Made by a program: the position numbers and the translations under genes. This document shows positions 17,375 to 55,357 of a stretch of DNA of 64,000 nt, piece by piece (the first letter of the stretch is position 1; every line of letters begins with the position of its first letter). Below the pieces are notes generated by a model. It was not told the origin of the DNA. It did no database searches and worked only from the letters and a program-made list of their open reading frames with translations. The DNA comes from Oliverpabstia sp. GTDB lineage: Bacteria > Bacillota > Clostridia > Lachnospirales > Lachnospiraceae. Location: NCBI GenBank assembly GCA_051879355.1, contig JBJELU010000078.1, forward strand, positions 33,762-97,761. The letters are read 5' to 3'.

Positions 17375-17504
17375 GTAAATGCCTCCTGATTTTCAAAGTT
17401 GTATTAATACAACTATACGACAAAAAAACATTTTCAGCAAGAAGTCAAAAAAATACCCCGGGGATTTTTACAAAATCCCCGGGGAAATATTATACAATTT
17501 TTAA

Positions 17505-17764
17505 TGCGCACCGCACCTCGAACTTCTCTCCCAGACGTTACTCCTACAGTTAACTCGGCCCAGGCACCCTTACGGCACACAGAGGATTCTGCTTAGTGCT
17601 GCTTCATTCCTGACCTGACACGGTTCACAGAGTTCTGTTGCGTAAGACCCAAACGTCAACGCCACTTATAGAAGGCAGCTCCACAAGAAAAAGCCCTCAG
17701 ATTGGTATCACCCCTGCTGTAGCGGATTGCAGGTACAGGGCACCGCTATCTCCCCGGCTGCGCA
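17505..17764 (-). ncRNA. ffs: Signal recognition particle RNA, large Bacillus-type with Alu domain
   Basis: Minus strand carries the helix-8 motif GTCAGGTCAGGAATGAAGCAGC and the 5' Alu-like GGGGAGATAGCGGTGCCCTGTACCTGCAATCCGCT; ends are complementary; promoter TTGACA (17799-17794)-N17-TATACT; downstream hairpin at ~17455-17484. Confidence 0.93.
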
Positions 17765-17900
17765 AAGTCAAGTATACCTGCTTTTCTGGCATTTGTCAAT
17801 TGAAAATTCAGATGATGAGGGGCTTTTACGGAGTGTGATGATTTGACAAACGGCAAAGCCGTGGTATGATGAAAGGAAAAAAGAGAAGGAAGAAACGAAA

Positions 17901-23497: not shown

Positions 23498-24078
23498 TTT
23501 TATTGATTGATAATTATGACAGCTTTTCCTATAACCTGTATCAGCTGATCGGTTCCGTAGAACCGGATATCAAAGTGGTTCGAAATGATGAGTGTACTCT
23601 TGAAGAGATTGAAGCAATGGCACCGGAAGCACTGATTTTTTCTCCGGGACCGGGACGTCCGGCAGATGCAGGCATTTGTATACCGGCCATTCGGTATTTT
23701 GCCGGAAAAATTCCTATGTTGGGCGTATGCCTGGGTCATCAGGCCATTTGTGAGGCATTTGGAGGAAGAGTTTCGTATGCAAAAGAACTGATGCACGGCA
23801 AACAGAAAATTATTTACCAGGCAGGAGAAAATCAATTATTTGCAGGGATGGAACCGTCTTTCCCGGCAGCCCGATATCATTCGCTGGCTGCAGTAAAGGA
23901 AGAACTTCCGGAGGTTCTGCGGGTAACAGCAGAATCGGAGGATGGAGAAATTATGGCGGTAGAACATACAGAATATCCCATTTACGGGGTACAGTTCCAT
24001 CCGGAATCGGTTATGACACCGGACGGAAGAACAATGATCTTGAACTTTATGAAAGCAGGGAGGATTTACCATGATTAA
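23494..24078 (+). CDS. trpG: Anthranilate synthase component II
   Basis: [23 protein letters not shown] and QFHPES motifs. Confidence 0.95.
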
Positions 24079-25093
24079 AGAAGCAATTGTTAAATTAACA
24101 AAAAAACAAGATTTATCTTATACAGAGGCAGAAGCAGTTATGAACGAGATTATGGGCGGTGAGGCAAGCCCGGTACAGATGTCAGCGTATCTGACGGCGT
24201 TATCATTGAAGGGAGAAACAATTGATGAAATCACAGCATCTGCGGCAGGAATGAGAGCTCATTGCATCAAGCTTCTTCATGATATGGATGTGTTGGAAAT
24301 CGTAGGAACCGGCGGTGATGGTTCTAACTCCTTCAATATTTCCACCACATCGTCCCTTGTTATCGCAGCGGCTGGTGTTCCGGTTGCCAAACATGGAAAC
24401 AGGGCAGCATCTTCCAAATCAGGAGCGGCCGATGTGCTGGAAGCTCTGGGAGTGAAAATTACGATTTCACCGGAGAAAAGTGCGGAGCTTCTGAAGAAAA
24501 TAAATATCTGCTTCCTGTTTGCCCAAAATTATCATATCGCCATGAAATACGTAGCGCCGATTCGAAAAGAACTGGGAATCCGGACAGTATTTAATATTCT
24601 GGGCCCTCTCAGCAATCCGGCAGGAGCAAATATGGAACTGATGGGTGTGTTTGATGAAAGTCTGGTAGAGCCGCTGGCTCAGGTTATGGCAAAACTTGGT
24701 GTGGTACGCGGTATGGTAGTATACGGACAGGACAGTCTGGATGAAATATCTATGAGTGCTCCCACATTGGTATGTGAAATTCGTGACGGATGGTTCCAGT
24801 CTTATGAACTGACTCCGGAACAGTTTGGATATACCCGCTGTTCCAAAGAAGAATTGCAGGGCGGCAGTCCGCAGGAAAATGCGGCAATCACTCTGGCAAT
24901 TCTGAAAGGTGAGGAACGCGGTGCAAAACGTCAGGCAGTATGCCTGAATGCGGGAGCCGCATTATATATTGCCGGAAAAACGGAAACTATAGAAGCAGGC
25001 GTAAAAATGGCAGAGGAATTGATTGACAATGGTTCTGCTTTGAAAAAACTGCAGGAATTTATCGATGAGAGCAATGCAGAACTTGCATGTTGA
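24071..25093 (+). CDS. trpD: Anthranilate phosphoribosyltransferase
   Basis: [18 protein letters not shown] and [13 protein letters not shown] motifs. Confidence 0.96.
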
Positions 25094-25105
25094 AAAGGAA
25101 GATAT

Positions 25106-25912
25106 ATGAATATTTTACAGGAAATTGCTGAAAAAACGAGACAGCGAATAGAAGACGAAAAACAGCAGATATCTACGGAACTGTTGCTGGAAAAGATTAA
25201 GCAGAATTGTGCTGAGCAATCCAATCATATTTCTTTTAAAGAAGCTTTACAGGCGAAAGGAATGTCTTATATCTGTGAAGTGAAAAAAGCTTCTCCTTCT
25301 AAAGGACTGATTGCACCGGATTTTCCCTATCTGCAGATTGCCCGGGAATACGAACAGGCCGGGGCGGCAGCTATTTCCTGCCTGACAGAACCTTTTTATT
25401 TTCAGGGAGCAGACAGGTATCTGAAGGAAATTGCACAGGCGGTGCATATTCCCGTACTGAGAAAAGATTTTGTGGTCGATGAGTATATGATTTATCAGGC
25501 AAAAGTTCTGGGAGCTTCTGCAGTGTTGCTGATCTGTGCGGTACTGAGTGATGAACAGTTATATAGTTATAGGAAACTTGCAGAAAGTCTGGGGATGGAC
25601 GCACTGGTGGAGGCTCATGACGAAGAAGAGGTTCAGCGGGCTTTGCAGGCCGGTGCAGAAATCATCGGTGTCAACAACCGGGATCTGCGGACCTTTCAGG
25701 TGGATATGGCCAATAGTATCCGGCTGCGGGAGCTTGCCCCGGAACATGTGGTATTTGTGTCGGAAAGCGGTATTAGGACTGCAGAAGATATCCGGCGGCT
25801 GCGGGAACATAATATTCAGGCAGTGCTGATCGGTGAAACGCTGATGAGAAGTGACGATAAAAAAGAGGCTCTGGAAATGCTGAACGGAAGTCCGCTGGGA
25901 AAGCGTGTATAA
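25106..25912 (+). CDS. trpC: Indole-3-glycerol phosphate synthase
   Basis: EVKKASPSKG, LRKDF, GVNNRDL and SESGI motifs. Confidence 0.96.
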   Translation: MNILQEIAEKTRQRIEDEKQQISTELLLEKIKQNCAEQSNHISFKEALQAKGMSYICEVKKASPSKGLIAPDFPYLQIAREYEQAGAAAISCLTEPFYFQGADRYLKEIAQAVHIPVLRKDFVVDEYMIYQAKVLGASAVLLICAVLSDEQLYSYRKLAESLGMDALVEAHDEEEVQRALQAGAEIIGVNNRDLRTFQVDMANSIRLRELAPEHVVFVSESGIRTAEDIRRLREHNIQAVLIGETLMRSDDKKEALEMLNGSPLGKRV

Positions 25913-26540
25913 GAAAATGAGAGATGTAGAACGGACAAGGATTAAAATATGTGGGCTGCGAAGGCAGGAAGATATCGAAATTATCAATGAGGTGCTGCCG
26001 GATTACTGTGGATTTGTCATTGAAGTGAAAAAAAGTTCACGGAATGTCAGCGCAGAACAGGTGCGAATGCTGGTGAAAGATTTAGATAGAAGAGTAATTC
26101 CGGTGGGAGTATTTGTCAATGCACCACCGGAGTTTCCTGCCCAACTTCTGAATGAAGGGACACTGGGAATGGCTCAGCTGCATGGGCAGGAAGATGAAAA
26201 CTATATCAAAATACTGCGGGAGATGACAGATAAACCTCTGATCAAAGCATTTTCTGTAAAGACAGAGGAAGATATCAGAAAAGCCTGTCAGAGCAGTGCA
26301 GATTATATATTGCTGGATCAGGGAAGTGGAGGAACCGGGAAAACCTTTGACTGGAACTTAATCCAGAATATTGACCGCCCTTATTTTCTGGCCGGCGGTC
26401 TTGGAGTGCATAATCTGCAGCAGGCCATAGAGACCCTGCATCCCTGGGCTGTAGATTTGAGCAGCAGTCTGGAGACGGACGGTTACAAAGACCCCGCCAA
26501 GATCCGGGAACTTATGAAAATTTTCCCCGGGGAAAAGTGA
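25905..26540 (+). CDS. trpF: Phosphoribosylanthranilate isomerase
   Basis: IKICGL, QLHGQE, GGTGKTFDW and LAGGL motifs. Confidence 0.95.
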   Translation: MYKKMRDVERTRIKICGLRRQEDIEIINEVLPDYCGFVIEVKKSSRNVSAEQVRMLVKDLDRRVIPVGVFVNAPPEFPAQLLNEGTLGMAQLHGQEDENYIKILREMTDKPLIKAFSVKTEEDIRKACQSSADYILLDQGSGGTGKTFDWNLIQNIDRPYFLAGGLGVHNLQQAIETLHPWAVDLSSSLETDGYKDPAKIRELMKIFPGEK

Positions 26541-26559
26541 ATGAAAGAGGAGTAGAAAG

Positions 26560-27744
26560 ATGTCAAAAGGAAGATTTGGTATTCACGGAGGCCAGTATAT
26601 TCCGGAGACACTGATGAATGCAGTGATCGAACTGGAAGAGGCCTATAATTTTTATAAAAATGATCCGGAGTTTAACCGGGAATTGACGGAACTTTTGAAT
26701 GAGTATGCGGGAAGACCGTCAAGATTGTATTTTGCAAAGCATATGACAGAGGATCTGGGCGGTGCGAAGGTTTATCTGAAAAGAGAGGACTTGAATCATA
26801 CGGGTGCCCATAAAATCAATAACGTGCTGGGTCAGGTATTGCTGGCAAAGAAAATGGGCAAGACCCGTGTGATTGCGGAGACCGGTGCCGGACAGCACGG
26901 TGTGGCTACGGCTACGGCGGCAGCCCTGATGGGAATGGAATGTGAAGTGTTTATGGGAAAAGAGGACACGGAGCGTCAGGCGCTGAATGTGTACCGGATG
27001 CGCCTGTTGGGAGCAAAAGTTCACCCGGTTACTTCAGGAACGGCAACTCTGAAAGATGCCGTATCAGAGACAATGAGGGAATGGACCAACCGGATTGCGG
27101 ATACGCATTATGTTCTGGGATCTGTGATGGGACCCCATCCGTTTCCTACGATTGTACGTGATTTTCAGGCAGTGATTTCAAAGGAAATCAAGGAGCAGAT
27201 GCTGGAAAAGGAAGGCCGTCTGCCGGATGCGGTTTTGGCCTGTGTGGGCGGCGGTTCCAATGCCATCGGAACTTTCTATCATTTTATTGAGGATGAAGGA
27301 GTACGCCTGATCGGATGTGAGGCAGCTGGAAGAGGCGTCAATACGGCTGAGACAGCAGCAACGATTGCTACCGGAAAGCTGGGTATTTTTCATGGAATGA
27401 AATCCTATTTCTGTCAGGATGAGTATGGACAGATTGCACCGGTGTATTCGATTTCTGCAGGACTGGATTATCCGGGAATCGGACCGGAACACGCCCATCT
27501 GTATGATATCGGAAGGGCAGAGTATGTGCCTGTAACGGATGAGGAAGCTGTGGAGGCTTTCGAATATCTGTCAAGGACGGAAGGAATCATTCCGGCAATC
27601 GAGAGTGCCCATGCAGTGGCCTATGCGAAAAAAATAGTGCCGCAGATGAGAAAAGACCAGATTGTAGTCATTACCATTTCCGGAAGAGGAGACAAGGATT
27701 GTGCAACCATTGCACGTTACAGAGGGGAGGATATCCATGAATAA
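26560..27744 (+). CDS. trpB: Tryptophan synthase beta chain
   Basis: [22 protein letters not shown] and SGRGDKD motifs. Confidence 0.97.
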
Positions 27745-28516
27745 AAAAATAGCAGAAGCATTTGCCGGAGAAAAGGCATTTATACCATTTATCACCTGCG
27801 GGGATCCCTCTCTGGAAATAACGGAGCAGCTGGTGTACGCCATGGAGGAAGCAGGAGCTGATCTGATCGAACTGGGGATTCCGTTTTCGGATCCTACGGC
27901 AGAAGGACCGGTGATTCAGGAGGCCAATGTACGGGCACTGGACGGAGGTGTGACCACTGATAAGATATTTGATATGGTAGAAAATATACGAAAAAAATCA
28001 TCGGTTCCCATGGTATTTATGACCTATGCCAATGTGGTATTTTCCTATGGAATCCAACGTTTTGTCAGCAAAGCGGCAGAGGTGGGAATGAATGGACTGA
28101 TTTTGCCGGATGTGCCTTTTGAAGAAAAAGAAGAATTCGATACGGTCTGCAAAGCATACGGGCTGGACCTGATTTCTCTGATAGCACCCACCTCTCATGA
28201 GAGAATTGCACAAATCGCAAAGGAAGCAGAAGGATTTGTCTATTGTGTATCCTCTCTCGGTGTGACCGGTACCAGGACGAATATCACCACAGATATCGGA
28301 GCAATGGTAAAACTGGTGAAACAGACAAAAAATATCCCCTGTGCGGTTGGATTTGGTATTTCCACACCGGAACAGGCAAAGAAAATGGCCCAACAGTCCG
28401 ATGGAGCGATTGTCGGTTCCGCAATCGTAAAACTGTGTGCGGCCCATGGCGCTGACTGTGTGCCGTATGTAAAAGAATATGTACGGTCGATGAAGACGGC
28501 AGTGCGGCAGGCATAA
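27737..28516 (+). CDS. trpA: Tryptophan synthase alpha chain
   Basis: [17 protein letters not shown] and VGFGI motifs; SD GGAGG before ATG at 27737. Confidence 0.96.
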
Positions 28517-28729: not shown

Positions 28730-30823
28730 ATGGAGAAAGGAGTGAAACTATTGGTTCAGAAAAAGATTGTTGCCCGTTCCAAAGGGGTTATTGAGGTGGA
28801 TGGCCTGAAGTTTAAAGACCTTGATGGAACTGGGGAACTGAAACCGTATGAGGACTGGCGTCTGACCCCGGAAGAGAGGGCGAAGGATCTGGTTTCGCGT
28901 ATGAATAATGAGGAAAAGGCCGGATTGATGGTGATTCATGATCTCCCGATGGGTATTTCCACACCGGAGGGTAAGCCTACCAGTCATAATGGTGTCCTGA
29001 ATGAGCAGTTTGAGGAAGTGATGAGGCGCGGCATGAAGGTGATGCAGTATCCGACCACGCTGCAGCTGGCTTCCCGTCATATCCGTCATATCATTGTGCG
29101 TGAAAATGCGAAACCCAGTGAGTTTGTTGCCTGGGTTAACGCTATGCAGGAGGTTTGTGAGGGAACACGCTGGGGAATTCCCTGTATCGTAGCCAGCAAT
29201 TCCAAGAATGAAAGTTCGGATATCCGTTATGATGCTTCGCAGGAAGCAAATAAATTTACCACATTCCCGGGAACATTGGGTCTTGCCGCTTCCCGCAATA
29301 TGGATACAATAGAAAAATTTGCGAAAATTGTACATGATGAGTTTTATGTGTCAAATATCCGCAAAGGTTACATGTATATGGCAGATTGTGCTACCGATCC
29401 TCGCTGGTTCCGTACCTATGGCACTTTCGGAGAGCATCCGGATCTGATCTGTGATATTATGCCGCGTGTGATTAAAGGAATCCAGGGAGAGACGTTGGAT
29501 GAAAATAGTGTAGCTGTGACAACTAAACATTTCCCGGGCGGCGGTGCCAGAGAAAATGGATTTGATCCTCATTATGCAGAAGGAAAATATAACTGCTACA
29601 ATACACCGGGAAGTATGGATACCTATCATCTTCCGGCATTTAAGGCATCCATTGCGGCGGGAACTTCTTCCATCATGCCGTACTATGCAATTCCTTCCAA
29701 TAAAAAATCCGGTTTCCCGCAGAATGGTGTGGACAAATTCGATGAAGAAATTGCATTTGCATATAATGACCAGTTTATCAACGGATTCCTCCGCAACGAC
29801 CTGGGATTTGACGGTATCGTCAACTCTGACACCGGTGTCATGGGCAACTGTGCGTGGGGTGCCGAGATGTATAATCAGGCAGGCCGTGCAGCACGCATTC
29901 TTCATGCAGGAACTGATATGGTATCTGGTGAAAATGATCCGGCACCGTTCCTGGAGGCTGTCACAAAGGGATACATTGATCAGGAGACTTTCGATCAGGC
30001 GGCAGCTCGTCTTTTGACAGAACTGTTCCGTCTGGGATTGTTTGAGAATCCTTATGCAGATGAAAATGCTGCTGATGCGGTAGTAAATACAGAAGAGACA
30101 AAAGCAATTGCATACAAAGCCCATCAGGAAAGTATCGTTGTTCTGAAAAATCAGAATGCAGTTCTTCCGTTGACTCTGGAGAAGCTTGAGGGCAAAAAAG
30201 TTTATGTAGAAATGTTGATGCGTACCGATTATTCGGAAAAAGAACTGCAGGCGATGGCATTGTCCGGTTCCGCAGCCAATCCGAAAGAAACCGTTGCCGC
30301 ATTTCCGAAGAAAATAAAAGAAGACAATCCGCAGATTACTTTTGTAGATGATTATAAGGAAGCGGACGTGGCTGTCCTGTTCCTGAAACCGGCCAGCGGA
30401 AGCTACTTTGAAGCTACTGACGGTTATCTGGAGCTGAATATCCAGAAAAGTACCGGTGTGGATGTGGATCATATCAGAGAAATCCGTGAAGCAGTCGGTC
30501 AGGTCGTGATGCATATCAATCTGAATCTGCCATATCTGCTGACCAATGTGGAACCTCTGGCAGACGCAGTAACGGTAGGATTTGATTCGTTCTCACGGGC
30601 TGCTTTTGATGTAATCAAAGGTGATGCTGCTCCTGTGGGTAAACTTCCGATTACCCTTCCGGGAAGTGATGCTGCCATTGCTGTGGATGAAAATGGAATC
30701 TGCGCAAGTCCTAACGACGTTCCGGGCTACGATAAAGCAAAATACATGAAAGATGGTCTGACCTATGCCTATAAAGATGCTGCAGGAAATGAGTATATTT
30801 ATGGCTTTGGACTGACATATTAA
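28730..30823 (+). CDS. GH3 beta-glucosidase family protein (start may be TTG at 28751)
   Basis: DPRWFR, KHFPGGG, IMPYY, VNSDTG, SIVVLKN and GKLPITLP motifs. Confidence 0.9.
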   Translation: MEKGVKLLVQKKIVARSKGVIEVDGLKFKDLDGTGELKPYEDWRLTPEERAKDLVSRMNNEEKAGLMVIHDLPMGISTPEGKPTSHNGVLNEQFEEVMRRGMKVMQYPTTLQLASRHIRHIIVRENAKPSEFVAWVNAMQEVCEGTRWGIPCIVASNSKNESSDIRYDASQEANKFTTFPGTLGLAASRNMDTIEKFAKIVHDEFYVSNIRKGYMYMADCATDPRWFRTYGTFGEHPDLICDIMPRVIKGIQGETLDENSVAVTTKHFPGGGARENGFDPHYAEGKYNCYNTPGSMDTYHLPAFKASIAAGTSSIMPYYAIPSNKKSGFPQNGVDKFDEEIAFAYNDQFINGFLRNDLGFDGIVNSDTGVMGNCAWGAEMYNQAGRAARILHAGTDMVSGENDPAPFLEAVTKGYIDQETFDQAAARLLTELFRLGLFENPYADENAADAVVNTEETKAIAYKAHQESIVVLKNQNAVLPLTLEKLEGKKVYVEMLMRTDYSEKELQAMALSGSAANPKETVAAFPKKIKEDNPQITFVDDYKEADVAVLFLKPASGSYFEATDGYLELNIQKSTGVDVDHIREIREAVGQVVMHINLNLPYLLTNVEPLADAVTVGFDSFSRAAFDVIKGDAAPVGKLPITLPGSDAAIAVDENGICASPNDVPGYDKAKYMKDGLTYAYKDAAGNEYIYGFGLTY

Positions 30824-30844
30824 AAATAAAGGGGGTAATAAACT

Positions 30845-32551
30845 ATGGTCAATTTAAAAGAAAAACCGTATTATCTGTCAGATGAAGATATCAAATGGGT
30901 AGAAGATACGATTGCAGGTATGAGTGACGAAGAAAAAGTCGGTCAGCTGTTTGTCAACATGGTGACTGATTTCAGTGAAGAATCAATTAAACATGTGGCA
31001 GAGACATATCATCCGGGCGCACTTCGCTATCATAATACATCTGCTGACAAGCTGTGGGATATGGTAAATACGTTCCAGTCTTACAGCCGGATTCCGCTTC
31101 TGGTTGCCAGCAACTGTGAAGCGGGAGGCAACGGCGGTGTGGGCGGCGGAACCGGAGTGTCCTGCGGTGCAGCTACGGCAGCATCCAGAGATGCACAGGT
31201 GGCTTATAAAGCTGCCAAAGTAGGAGGAACAGAAGCGATGGCTATCGGTTCCAACTGGAACTTTGCTCCGATCGTTGACTTGCTTTACAACTGGAGAAAT
31301 ACGATTGTACAGACCCGTTCTTTCTGCGCGGATGTGGACAGAACTATTGAATATGCGAAAGCGTTTATTAAAGGTACCGAGGAATGCGACATGGCAACAA
31401 CCATTAAGCATTTTCCTGGTGACGGAACTGAAGAAAATGACCAGCATCTGATGATGGGTATCAATGATATGGACTGTGATACCTGGATGGAAACTTTCGG
31501 AAAAGTATATTCTGAGCTGATTGACGCCGGTGTAAAGACGATTATGGCAGGTCATATTGCACAGCCGGCATGGCAGAGAAAAATCGCAGGAAAAGATCTG
31601 GATGATCATGAGATACTTCCGGCTACTCTCTGCCCGGAACTGATCACCGGTCTTTTGAAAGAAAAACTGGGATTCAATGGTCTGGTAGTGACAGATGCCA
31701 GCCATATGATCGGTATGTTCGGTGCTATGCCGAGAAGTCAGCAGGTTCCTCAGGCAATCGCTGCAGGCTGCGACATGTATCTGTTCTTTAACGACATGGC
31801 AGAAGATTATGGCTATATGATGGCCGGATATAAAAACGGCATCATTACCGAAGAACGTATGAATGATGCACTGACCAGAATCCTTGGTGTAAAAGCCAGC
31901 ATTGGTCTGCACAAGAAAAAAGCAGAAGGAACCCTGCTTCCTCCGAAAGAAAGTATTTCTATTGTGGGATGCGAGGCTCATAAAGTTGTTGCTGCAGAAT
32001 GTGCAGACAAGTTCATCACTCTGGTAAAAGATACTCAGAAAATGCTTCCTCTGGATCCGGTGAATAAAAAACGCGTTCGTATTTATTTCCTTCAGGGAGA
32101 CGGAAGAGTTGTTGCCGGAAAACTGATCAAGGATGATTCCGGAGACAGAACGAAAGCATATATCATCCAGAAACTGGAAGAAAAAGGATTTATCGTAGAA
32201 GATGGTGACGCAGTGGCTGCCAAAGGAAGTATGGAAGCATTCCGCGCCAATACCGATGCCGTTCTGGTATTTATCGATCAGGTGGGATTTGCACAGTACA
32301 ACACCATGCGTGTAAAATGGACTATGCCGGGTCAGCAGCCATGGTATGCAAGCCAGGTACCTACTGCATTTATCAGTCTGTACCTGCCGAACTATCTGAT
32401 TGACCTGACCATGAGCCGTACCTATATCAACTGCTATCAGGATACCCCACAGGTAATCGACCAGTTGATTGATAAGCTTTGCGGAGAATCTGAATTCAAA
32501 GGCACGCCGGAAGAAAATGTATGGTGTGGCCGTTGGGATACCAGACTGTAA
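30845..32551 (+). CDS. GH3 glycoside hydrolase
   Basis: NFAPIVD, KHFPGDG, FNGLVVTD and AGCDM motifs. Confidence 0.9.
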   Translation: MVNLKEKPYYLSDEDIKWVEDTIAGMSDEEKVGQLFVNMVTDFSEESIKHVAETYHPGALRYHNTSADKLWDMVNTFQSYSRIPLLVASNCEAGGNGGVGGGTGVSCGAATAASRDAQVAYKAAKVGGTEAMAIGSNWNFAPIVDLLYNWRNTIVQTRSFCADVDRTIEYAKAFIKGTEECDMATTIKHFPGDGTEENDQHLMMGINDMDCDTWMETFGKVYSELIDAGVKTIMAGHIAQPAWQRKIAGKDLDDHEILPATLCPELITGLLKEKLGFNGLVVTDASHMIGMFGAMPRSQQVPQAIAAGCDMYLFFNDMAEDYGYMMAGYKNGIITEERMNDALTRILGVKASIGLHKKKAEGTLLPPKESISIVGCEAHKVVAAECADKFITLVKDTQKMLPLDPVNKKRVRIYFLQGDGRVVAGKLIKDDSGDRTKAYIIQKLEEKGFIVEDGDAVAAKGSMEAFRANTDAVLVFIDQVGFAQYNTMRVKWTMPGQQPWYASQVPTAFISLYLPNYLIDLTMSRTYINCYQDTPQVIDQLIDKLCGESEFKGTPEENVWCGRWDTRL

Positions 32552-32559
32552 AACATAAA

Positions 32560-32603
32560 AGAATTGCCCGGGAATCGTAAATCGGAACCTGGGCAATTCT
32601 TTT
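32560..32603 (+). terminator. GH3 operon terminator
   Basis: AGAATTGCCCGGG / CCTGGGCAATTCT followed by TTT. Confidence 0.75.
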
Positions 32604-32703
32604 ATCAGTTAAATGGTATTATATAAATTGTCAGAAAAATACAAATAATACAAACAAATAGACAAATAAAAATATAAAAATGAAAAATATTTTAAAATAA
32701 TAC

Positions 32704-32732
32704 TTGACATATCAGCCAATTTGCGATACAAT
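32704..32732 (+). promoter_or_regulatory. Near-consensus sigmaA promoter with an A/T-rich upstream region
   Basis: TTGACA (32704)-N17-TACAAT (32727). Confidence 0.8.
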
Positions 32733-32738
32733 AAACTC

Positions 32739-32995
32739 AACAAAAAACAACAGAAACAGAAACTAAAGAAAAGAGGTACAGTCCAATGGCATAGTTAATC
32801 TTACAATCATTATTAGAAAATCTCTAAAAGAGTTTACATAGATGTAACCAAAGGAGATGATTAGAATGAAAGGCAGAGATCCATAGCGGACAACTCAAAA
32901 AAATCAATAGAAAGAGAGGTTATACAGTGAGACTTCTGAATATTCATTAAGAGGGCTATTCGATAAAAATAATAATCGAATAGCCCTAAAATTTT
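32739..32995 (+). other. Putative ~250-nt small transcript carrying four SD-led minigenes
   Basis: ATG GCA TAG at 32786; ATG TAA at 32842; ATG AAA GGC AGA GAT CCA TAG at 32866; GTG...TAA at 32927-32950; each has an SD-like sequence; 13-bp hairpin at 32952-32987. Confidence 0.55.
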
Positions 32996-33010
32996 GTCCG
33001 CAGAACAGTA

Positions 33011-33850
33011 TTAAAGATGATAGAAGAATCGTTCCCCCAGCATCGGTATGTGGGCCTTGGCTGCAGAATTTTGCATCCACAGTTCCCGCAGGAAGATGGT
33101 GGGGTCTATGGTGTTGCCCGTAATCATGTCATAATGTGTCGGGATTGTCATATCTGCATGAAGAAGCACAGCCAGGTGGGCGGATTCTATGTAACTCAGG
33201 TTGCCGATGCAGTCTCTTGCTGTCCGGAAGTAGTCACCGCCGTTGATGGGTGGGAAGAACAGGTGTGGCGCCGGAAGAGCCCGCAGGTCGCTCAATAGCT
33301 GTTCGGTAAGGTAGGTATCTCCCATATGGAGAAGGCGGATACCGTCCATGGTCAGATAATAACAAAGTGCCGTATCATTTCCAACATTGTCGGTCATATG
33401 GACAGGATGAGCTGCTGATACTGGTTCAATTGTAAGTCCGGAAAATACCAGTGTACGGTGGGCATTGGCAGCCATGATACGATCAGAAGAAATTCCTGCC
33501 TCTGTCAGTATAGAAACACAAGCACCGGGAACGATAAAAACAGTATGAGAGTCTGCAGCGGCGATTGCTGTCAGGGTGTCCAGTGCCAGATGATCCAGAT
33601 GACCGTGGGTGCAGAGCACATAGTCTGCCAGTATCTGTCCTGGTGAAAAGGGAGAGGGATACAGTCTTCGGGTTTCCCCGGTTCCATCTGTGATATCATT
33701 CAGTACCGGGTCAATATATACGGTGGCTGATTTTTTGAAAACAAATCCGCACTGTCCCAGATACCAGAATGCAAGAGTATCATCCGACAATTTTGTATCA
33801 CGAATTTCTTTCAGCAGGTCTGTTCCCTGCCGATACCAGTTTTTTTGCAT
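33011..33850 (-). CDS. MBL-fold metallo-hydrolase (UlaG-like)
   Basis: LGQCGF, THGHLDHL, HMGDT and PTHYD motifs. Confidence 0.88.
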   Translation of the reverse strand: MQKNWYRQGTDLLKEIRDTKLSDDTLAFWYLGQCGFVFKKSATVYIDPVLNDITDGTGETRRLYPSPFSPGQILADYVLCTHGHLDHLALDTLTAIAAADSHTVFIVPGACVSILTEAGISSDRIMAANAHRTLVFSGLTIEPVSAAHPVHMTDNVGNDTALCYYLTMDGIRLLHMGDTYLTEQLLSDLRALPAPHLFFPPINGGDYFRTARDCIGNLSYIESAHLAVLLHADMTIPTHYDMITGNTIDPTIFLRELWMQNSAAKAHIPMLGERFFYHL

Positions 33851-43774: not shown

Positions 43775-43848
43775 TCGAAGCGACGGGATTCGAACCCACG
43801 ACCTCTGCGTCCCGAACGCAGCGCTCTACCAAACTGAGCCACGCTTCG
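43775..43848 (-). tRNA. tRNA-Pro (anticodon CGG)
   Basis: Cloverleaf; anticodon arm CTGCG-TTCGGGA-CGCAG; GGTTCGAATCC T-arm; promoter TTGACA-N17-TATAAT at 43904-43876. Confidence 0.97.
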
Positions 43849-55269: not shown

Positions 55270-55357
55270 GGAGATGTACCCAAGTGGTTGAAGGGTCCGC
55301 ACTCGAAATGCGGTAGGTCGGTTTACCGGCGCAAGGGTTCAAATCCCTTCATCTCCG
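55270..55357 (+). tRNA. tRNA-Ser (anticodon CGA)
   Basis: Cloverleaf with long variable arm; CCGCA-CTCGAAA-TGCGG; promoter TTGACG (55197)-N17-TATAAT (55220) inside the tadA 3' end. Confidence 0.96.

Follow-up and report, generated by a model that had tools for sequence, protein, structure and literature searches.

The element described here belongs to an RNA family that is real and widespread, is in no database or paper searched, and has an anatomy that fits no known class. As to its function, which we infer from sequence, our tentative reading (probability about 0.40) is that of a CodY-controlled ribosome-decoy RNA, a stand-alone transcript carrying tandem strong ribosome-binding units.

The window is the whole stretch of 64,000 nucleotides of Oliverpabstia sp. 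DNA that was analyzed. The element (32690–32995; Table 1) lies between a GH3 gene (30845–32551, +), which has its own terminator hairpin at 32555–32605, and a convergent MBL-fold gene (33011–33850, −). An earlier note on this DNA had described a TTGACA-17-TACAAT promoter, four SD-led units and a perfect 13-bp hairpin, with no gene following on the same strand. The promoter was confirmed, with 11 of 12 consensus positions, and the next gene, for the MBL-fold protein, is indeed on the minus strand. The coordinates of the hairpin (32952–32987) and of the four reading frames also check out (ATG GCA TAG at 32786, ATG TAA at 32842, MKGRDP-stop at 32866, and the GTG-led RLLNIH-stop at 32927). The U tail after the hairpin is poor (AAAATTTT), and the hairpin was not called in the terminator scan; changes in its stem among homologues preserve pairing, as judged by eye. 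Beyond what the note had seen, a CodY-like box lies upstream, the element is spread across the family and has two paralogues in its own genome, and most modules of the family lack a start codon. Elsewhere in the window are an SRP RNA (17504–17765, −), tRNAs at 43775–43848 (−) and 55270–55357 (+), the trp operon (~23500–28500), and two GH3 genes (28730–32551).

Table 1. Features of the element and its upstream region (positions in the window)
Feature	Position	Strand	Remarks
CodY-like box	32626–32640	+	Two mismatches to consensus; 78 nt upstream of −35
Sigma-A-type promoter, TTGACA-17-TACAAT	32704–32732	+	TTGACA in 90 of 95 family promoters called
Predicted stand-alone RNA, ~255 nt	32739–32995	+	5′ end inferred from −10 box; RNA-run contigs
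Unit 1: family core module (SD, ACAGTCCA spacer) and ATG GCA TAG	32770–32794	+	
Unit 2: putative small hairpin and conserved non-coding motif (32833–32843)	32817–32847	+	ATG-TAA not conserved
Unit 3: SD and minigene MKGRDP-stop	32851–32886	+	Pro-stop end
Unit 4: SD and terminal 7-codon minigene	32909–32950	+	GTG start; stop abuts hairpin
Terminator-like hairpin, 13 bp	32952–32995	+	Weak U tail

Pairing energies with the 16S tail of the family (taken from L290) were −11.1, −2.4, −11.6, and −13.6 kcal/mol for units 1 to 4, which makes the SDs of units 1, 3, and 4 strong and leaves unit 2 with practically none. Three of the four proposed SD-led units stand. The second, whose SD the note itself had flagged as weak, is not conserved as such: its ATG-TAA is missing in most loci of the subtype defined below, and a start–stop minigene is not supported there. 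The suspicion that the layout is non-random was borne out by a shuffle check with thresholds set after seeing the data, in which three units of SD, start, and short ORF occurred in none of 2000 dinucleotide shuffles and in one of 1298 intergenic windows of the same genome.

BLAST found the RNA in seven of the 16 other genomes of the genus and in other genera, beside unrelated genes. A search pattern made from the body of unit 3, with the K-G-R-x-P residues fixed and the start codon not included, matched 18 of 400 family genomes besides our own, in 20 places in total. All 14 matches that lie in elements have an ATG or TTG in frame, preceded by an SD-like stretch; the other six were chance matches in coding DNA, and none had such a start adjoining the motif. 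The 17 subtype loci comprise those 14 (one of the near-identical L315/L015 among them), L012, and L364, and the close kin L010 and L011 were left out of the subtype table. Units 1, 3, and the terminal unit (MA-stop, MKGRDP-stop, and MRLLNIH-stop in the window) kept the same order in 17 of 17 loci, with a conserved layout and diverging spacers; the homologues do not make the RNA a decayed gene or a leader. Across the subtype, unit 1 reads M-[A/G/E/K] with zero to three more codons, unit 3 reads M-K-G-R-[D/G/A]-P-stop (one to three extra codons in three loci), and the terminal unit has seven codons in 15 of the 17. Starts are exchanged among ATG, GTG, and TTG and stops among TAA, TAG, and TGA, and there are synonymous swaps for Leu (CTT/TTA), Lys (AAA/AAG), and Gly (three codons, GGC/GGA/GGT). 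The exchange of start and stop codons shows selection on the translation of units 1, 3, and 4.

Unit 2 behaves differently from the start–stop minigene first proposed. Its core motif persists across the subtype and occurs, without any SD, in other subtypes as well (34 of 169 non-redundant elements), and what had been taken for its SD falls inside the putative hairpin. A CUC/GAG to CAC/GUG double change was seen in this hairpin in L309 and L324. RNAalifold on 15 sequences gave no consensus structure for it, and for that reason the hairpin remains putative.

Unit 1 is one copy of the family core module, which reads, in order, RAGGTACRGWCCR, a slot of three bases, RRA, AMN, and TAA. Without the stop, this pattern matched 129 of 400 Lachnospiraceae genomes, and a reversed control pattern gave 12 matches in 10 genomes; in other families of the order, none of 136 genomes was matched by a close variant of the pattern. 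Roughly one in four of the related gut-bacterium genomes that were searched contain the RNA family. A strict pattern found about 590 stretches in GTDB. The 80 titles listed among these were mostly Lachnospiraceae and its genera, the rest being vague or single outliers, and the family is named on that basis. Named cultured carriers are Blautia celeris, B. ammoniilytica, Anaerobutyricum hallii, Eubacterium ramulus, Parablautia muri, and Sporofaciens musculi.

We examined 126 loci from among the matches listed for the core-module pattern. A crude long-ORF filter removed 27 of them, about half of which were true elements on inspection. Both a promoter and a terminator-like hairpin were present in 94 of the 99 loci kept, with a median length of about 345 nt. 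Elements hold one to nine units, mostly two to four, in shuffled order, and the RNA is A-rich (45% A). The neighbors formed 131 clusters among 167 genes, the largest with five members, so that there is no conserved neighbor. These promoter-to-terminator loci with unrelated neighbors uphold the stand-alone transcript that had been proposed.

In Rfam 15, the element had no match above the gathering threshold, a scan of its region at E up to 10 turned up nothing but terminator-type noise, and eight homologue loci gave 0 matches. No element was found in plasmid and phage collections, and viral-contig collections gave 0 and 1 matches. A contig from a viral collection (L069, 44.9 kb) carries a complete three-module element and may be host DNA beside a prophage. 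A metagenome scan returned 90 loci with just 13 distinct sequences, nearly all of one species type and one a chance match. A tandem-module pattern whose gap was too short gave no match in five family genomes and our own. The full-text literature searched, which most subscription papers lie outside, does not describe the family; a very strong intergenic transcript has been reported at position 3,247,671 in a member of the Lachnospiraceae, Clostridium phytofermentans (PMC5171806, in part).

Among 214 modules the three-base slot of the core was CCA in 84, ATG in 57, CCG in 23, TTG in 15, AAG and ACA in 11 each, AAA in 5, and others in 8, and modules without a start codon were carried by 85 of the 93 elements. 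The median SD of these start-less modules was −13.9 kcal/mol (n = 99), against −11.1 kcal/mol in a set of 588 real start regions chosen to have the same SD core. An in-frame stop came within eight codons in 102 of 107 CCR modules (36 and 60 in the other frames). When start-less modules without the usual TAA were taken, 32 of 43 had an in-frame stop at codons 2–6, against 15.5 ± 3 in shuffles and 19 and 16 in the other frames, a result inflated by kinship since about 12 of the 32 share one 5-codon tail. Conservation of the spacer and of the codons that follow the SD goes far beyond what ribosome loading by itself would require.

Several other ideas were examined and set aside. Pairing that runs past the anti-SD along the 16S tail was no better than in shuffled spacers (mean −21.6 and −21.0 kcal/mol; 98 modules). 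An upstream in-frame start for the start-less modules failed at nearly all loci among the matches listed, where the frames were closed by stops or free of starts. Natural mRNA look-alikes gave 25 profile matches and no coherent set, few real gene starts resembling the module, and the best duplexes of the family's motifs with L292 rRNA or tRNA were unremarkable.

The 3′ end of the elements follows a rule of its own. Of 208 elements with a called terminator (pooled and partly redundant), 197 end in an SD-led ORF, whose stop lies within a few bases of the hairpin. Among 159 distinct terminal ORFs, 153 have 3–9 codons (56 and 19 in the other frames), starting with ATG (97), TTG (51), or GTG (11) and stopping with TAA (80), TAG (54), or TGA (25). 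Their peptides vary widely. A modest synonymous excess (39 of 93 changes, 0.25 expected, p = 2e-4; the other 54 are non-synonymous) suggests some selection on the terminal peptide. Neither the start-less frames (23 of 66, p = 0.23) nor the internal ATG frames had such an excess.

CodY-like boxes were scored against an AT-rich consensus, on which all the counts rest. With up to two mismatches, a box was present in 20 of 94 family promoters, compared with 0.5% of shuffles and 3 of 90 other AT-rich promoters; with up to three, these values were 48 of 94, 5.9%, and 12 of 90. Box positions cluster near −97, −78, −67, −46, and −36 from the −35 box with a phase of ~10.3 bp (R = 0.76), and this helical phasing points to an activator acting from one side of the DNA. 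A codY gene was present in five of five carriers tested. The predicted boxes indicate that the RNA gene is likely CodY-activated.

Twelve runs recorded as RNA contain 0.28–0.41 of the words of a 501-nt query, which matches an RNA of ~250 nt. Contigs of four of them (X1, X2, X5, and X6), from four gut studies, were mapped on the element. X5 gave an exact 179-nt contig (32778–32955), X6 a contig at 32749–33002, and X2 one at 32749–33100; flanking genes had no contig cover in X5 and X6, which is no proof of their silence. In X1, a contig at 32778–33383 had a depth of 2024 and the flanking-gene contigs had 3.7 and 7.7, and in X5 exact contigs of the C147 paralogue described below, all inside its predicted RNA, had depths of 4010 and 6567; such contigs reveal neither strand nor ends, genes cannot be ranked by their depth, and some of the signal may be DNA carry-over. 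They are a hint that the element RNA is abundant.

The decoy, sponge, and micropeptide options that the note had raised are still the main candidates. In the ribosome-decoy model, CodY would activate transcription of the array RNA, each SD would load ribosomes, and ribosome occupancy, not the 2–7-residue peptides, would be the main output. We favor occupancy because the peptides are variable, start-less modules with extra-strong SDs dominate, and copies range from one to nine; a titration array also predicts the variable unit number and shuffled order seen. In Bacillus subtilis, ribosomes bind an SD that has no start codon after it, and such a site blocks RNase J1 (PMC5737220, in part). Termination stalls at Asp-Pro-stop (PMC3985003, in part). 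Several observations speak against a decoy. The conservation of the spacer and codons would be a better fit to a sequence-specific ligand, the synonymous excess in terminal ORFs means some peptide selection, the unit 2 core and the GACGAGAAA hairpin (30 of 169 non-redundant elements) are given no role, and an RNA made in rich conditions would cost translation capacity.

That conservation, tighter than a decoy needs, makes a modular sponge the close rival, which we consider possible and somewhat less probable. Its modules would mimic regulated start regions and titrate an RNA-binding protein or a C-rich anti-SD sRNA, the mini-ORFs mainly stabilizing the RNA. Tandem copies, extra shuffled motifs, and a stand-alone RNA under a metabolic regulator are in keeping with it, as is RosA, where the SD of a 7-codon ORF is the sRNA-binding site (PMC8216469, in part). 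Ligand binding leaves the start and stop codon swaps unexplained, however, few real gene starts look like the module, and intergenic DNA of our own genome held no shared strong complementary partner, in a search that short seeds would escape. CsrA itself was rejected as the ligand in most carriers: csrA was found in one of five carriers tested and is absent from our own genome (89.6% complete), from two near-complete carriers, and from one complete carrier. Unit 1 also has no GGA, and the base after AGGTAC in 98 modules was A in 40 and G in 58, which differs from CsrB-type sites. In an operon of micropeptides, the effectors would be peptides of 2–8 residues (MKGR[D/G/A]P, M[K/R]Lxxxx, MDxxx, MIExxx); this reading is rather unlikely. 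The synonymous excess in terminal ORFs, K-G-R-x-P kept with three Gly codons, and a unit 4 of seven codons in 15 of 17 loci favor it, but the search pattern itself fixed the K-G-R-x-P residues, most changes in terminal ORFs are non-synonymous, the dipeptides MA, MG, MK, and ME are interchangeable, an export signal and a conserved neighbor are both absent, and the prevalence of start-less modules is left without a peptide.

GcvB exemplifies the logic of an sRNA that base-pairs with mRNAs, and a trans-acting RNA with several seeds, repressing or activating mRNAs under CodY control, would agree with the CodY-like box, the terminator, the weak structure outside it, and the short conserved motifs. 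We regard it as very unlikely: each module copies a start region in the sense orientation and is not antisense to it, a search of intergenic DNA of our own genome gave no convincing targets, and the codon-type swaps would have no explanation. The idea of a decayed gene, a leader, or a chance layout in A/G-rich DNA is largely refuted and has next to no probability left. A composition of 45% A does favor SD-like words, unit 2 being an example, but the shuffles and the reversed control argue against chance, and a leader is hard to reconcile with a downstream gene that varies from locus to locus and, in 36 of 94, lies on the other strand. A further proposal, which we think very improbable, is that start-less modules are read with no need of an initiation codon and that the RNA would rescue or recycle proline-stalled ribosomes as a template that carries no tRNA domain. 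At a 6-nt spacing, the very strong SD would set the CCN codon in the P site, ribosomes with peptidyl-tRNA-Pro would land there after a proline stall and read one to five codons, and release would follow at the conserved stop. It was suggested by the match of SD, 6 nt, CCN, short frame, and stop to the landing site of T4 gene 60, where an SD 6 nt 5′ of a fixed codon precedes a start-less frame ending in a stop (PMC5009743, in part). Set beside gene 60 and tmRNA, the array RNA showed no tRNA-like domain in alignment or Rfam scans. In L312, L313, L315, L322, and L015, a start-less module follows the Pro-stop of unit 3 by about 35–45 nt. Ribosome hopping in cis was rejected as a general mechanism, as only 3 of 85 elements have an upstream Pro-containing ORF on the same RNA.

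Comparison with known systems places the ribosome-decoy candidate near several classes and inside none. RosA and RsaI are sponge RNAs of a ~230-nt class. Like the array RNA, RosA (B. subtilis) and RsaI (Staphylococcus aureus) are stand-alone, have G-rich SD-like regions, and answer to a global metabolic regulator, and the 7-codon ORF of RosA associates with ribosomes, as we propose for the mini-ORFs (PMC8216469, in part). The array RNA differs in having no sequence match to them, up to nine tandem modules, mini-ORF frames conserved across many genera, no partner sRNA found, and a CodY-like box instead of a CcpA site. CsrB, CsrC, RsmY, and RsmZ array repeated SD-like motifs on one non-coding RNA; here the motif is not GGA in a hairpin loop, start and stop codons are in frame, and CsrA is absent from four of five carriers. 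Lambda bar minigenes consist of an SD, a start, one to few codons, and a stop, with a potential for peptidyl-tRNA drop-off. This layout was found, conserved, in units 1, 3, and 4 and not in unit 2 or the start-less modules; in contrast to bar, the array RNA is chromosomal, polycistronic, family-wide, and mostly start-less. Type III antitoxin arrays combine repeats with a conserved toxin gene, whereas the neighbors here are diverse and Rfam gave no match. CodY control of BsrF is activation. BsrF (B. subtilis) is likewise stand-alone and CodY-controlled, with no known target (PMC4152353, in part); the array RNA differs from it in size and taxon and has no Rfam match. The STAB-SD and hbs no-AUG stabilizers resemble the start-less modules in that a strong SD without a start codon loads ribosomes and blocks RNase J1 (PMC5737220, in part). 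They differ in that 94 of the 99 loci here close with a terminator-like hairpin and contain no long ORF, leaving no downstream coding region to protect, and in that the sites are repeated and their downstream codons conserved.

The Lachnospiraceae are dominant gut anaerobes in which, to our knowledge, almost no regulatory RNAs have been characterized. The present family is widespread in them, a genome often carries several copies of it, and gut RNA libraries represent it well. If true, a chromosomal RNA of ribosome-loading units would be a new tie between amino-acid status and translation capacity; the sponge or micropeptide readings would also leave a new family with named cultured carriers. 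The frame-keeping start-less modules permit a direct test of start-codon-independent decoding.

Two further transcripts with the same promoter signature were found in the genome of the window. One, of ~230 nt (C147:7030–7260, −; locus L003), has two start-less Pro-Pro modules and a terminal MIEPTN-stop ORF. The other, of ~1 kb (C78:12314–13340, +), is A-rich and has a homologue in L032; it combines the motif of unit 2 with a GTG-AAA-TAG unit and ends in a TTG-NKEEH-stop ORF. Variant architectures occur elsewhere in the family. L042 and L044 carry arrays of 7–9 modules with a period of ~53–57 nt, L269 has two modules 750 nt apart, and L016 (880–1600) holds a tandem pair of whole RNA genes, each with its own promoter and hairpin. 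L073, L077–L080, L096, L097, and L114 form a subtype in which many AGTAC-NAAA-GA micro-repeats separate the first module from the last. The small hairpin with a GAGAAA loop forms the terminator tip in L305, L307, L314, L318, L320, and L324 and is internal in L070, L074, and L076; it is a possible protein-binding site. At C2:16148 (+) of the same genome, a hairpin is followed by CTGATGAG, which we take to resemble a hammerhead ribozyme core.
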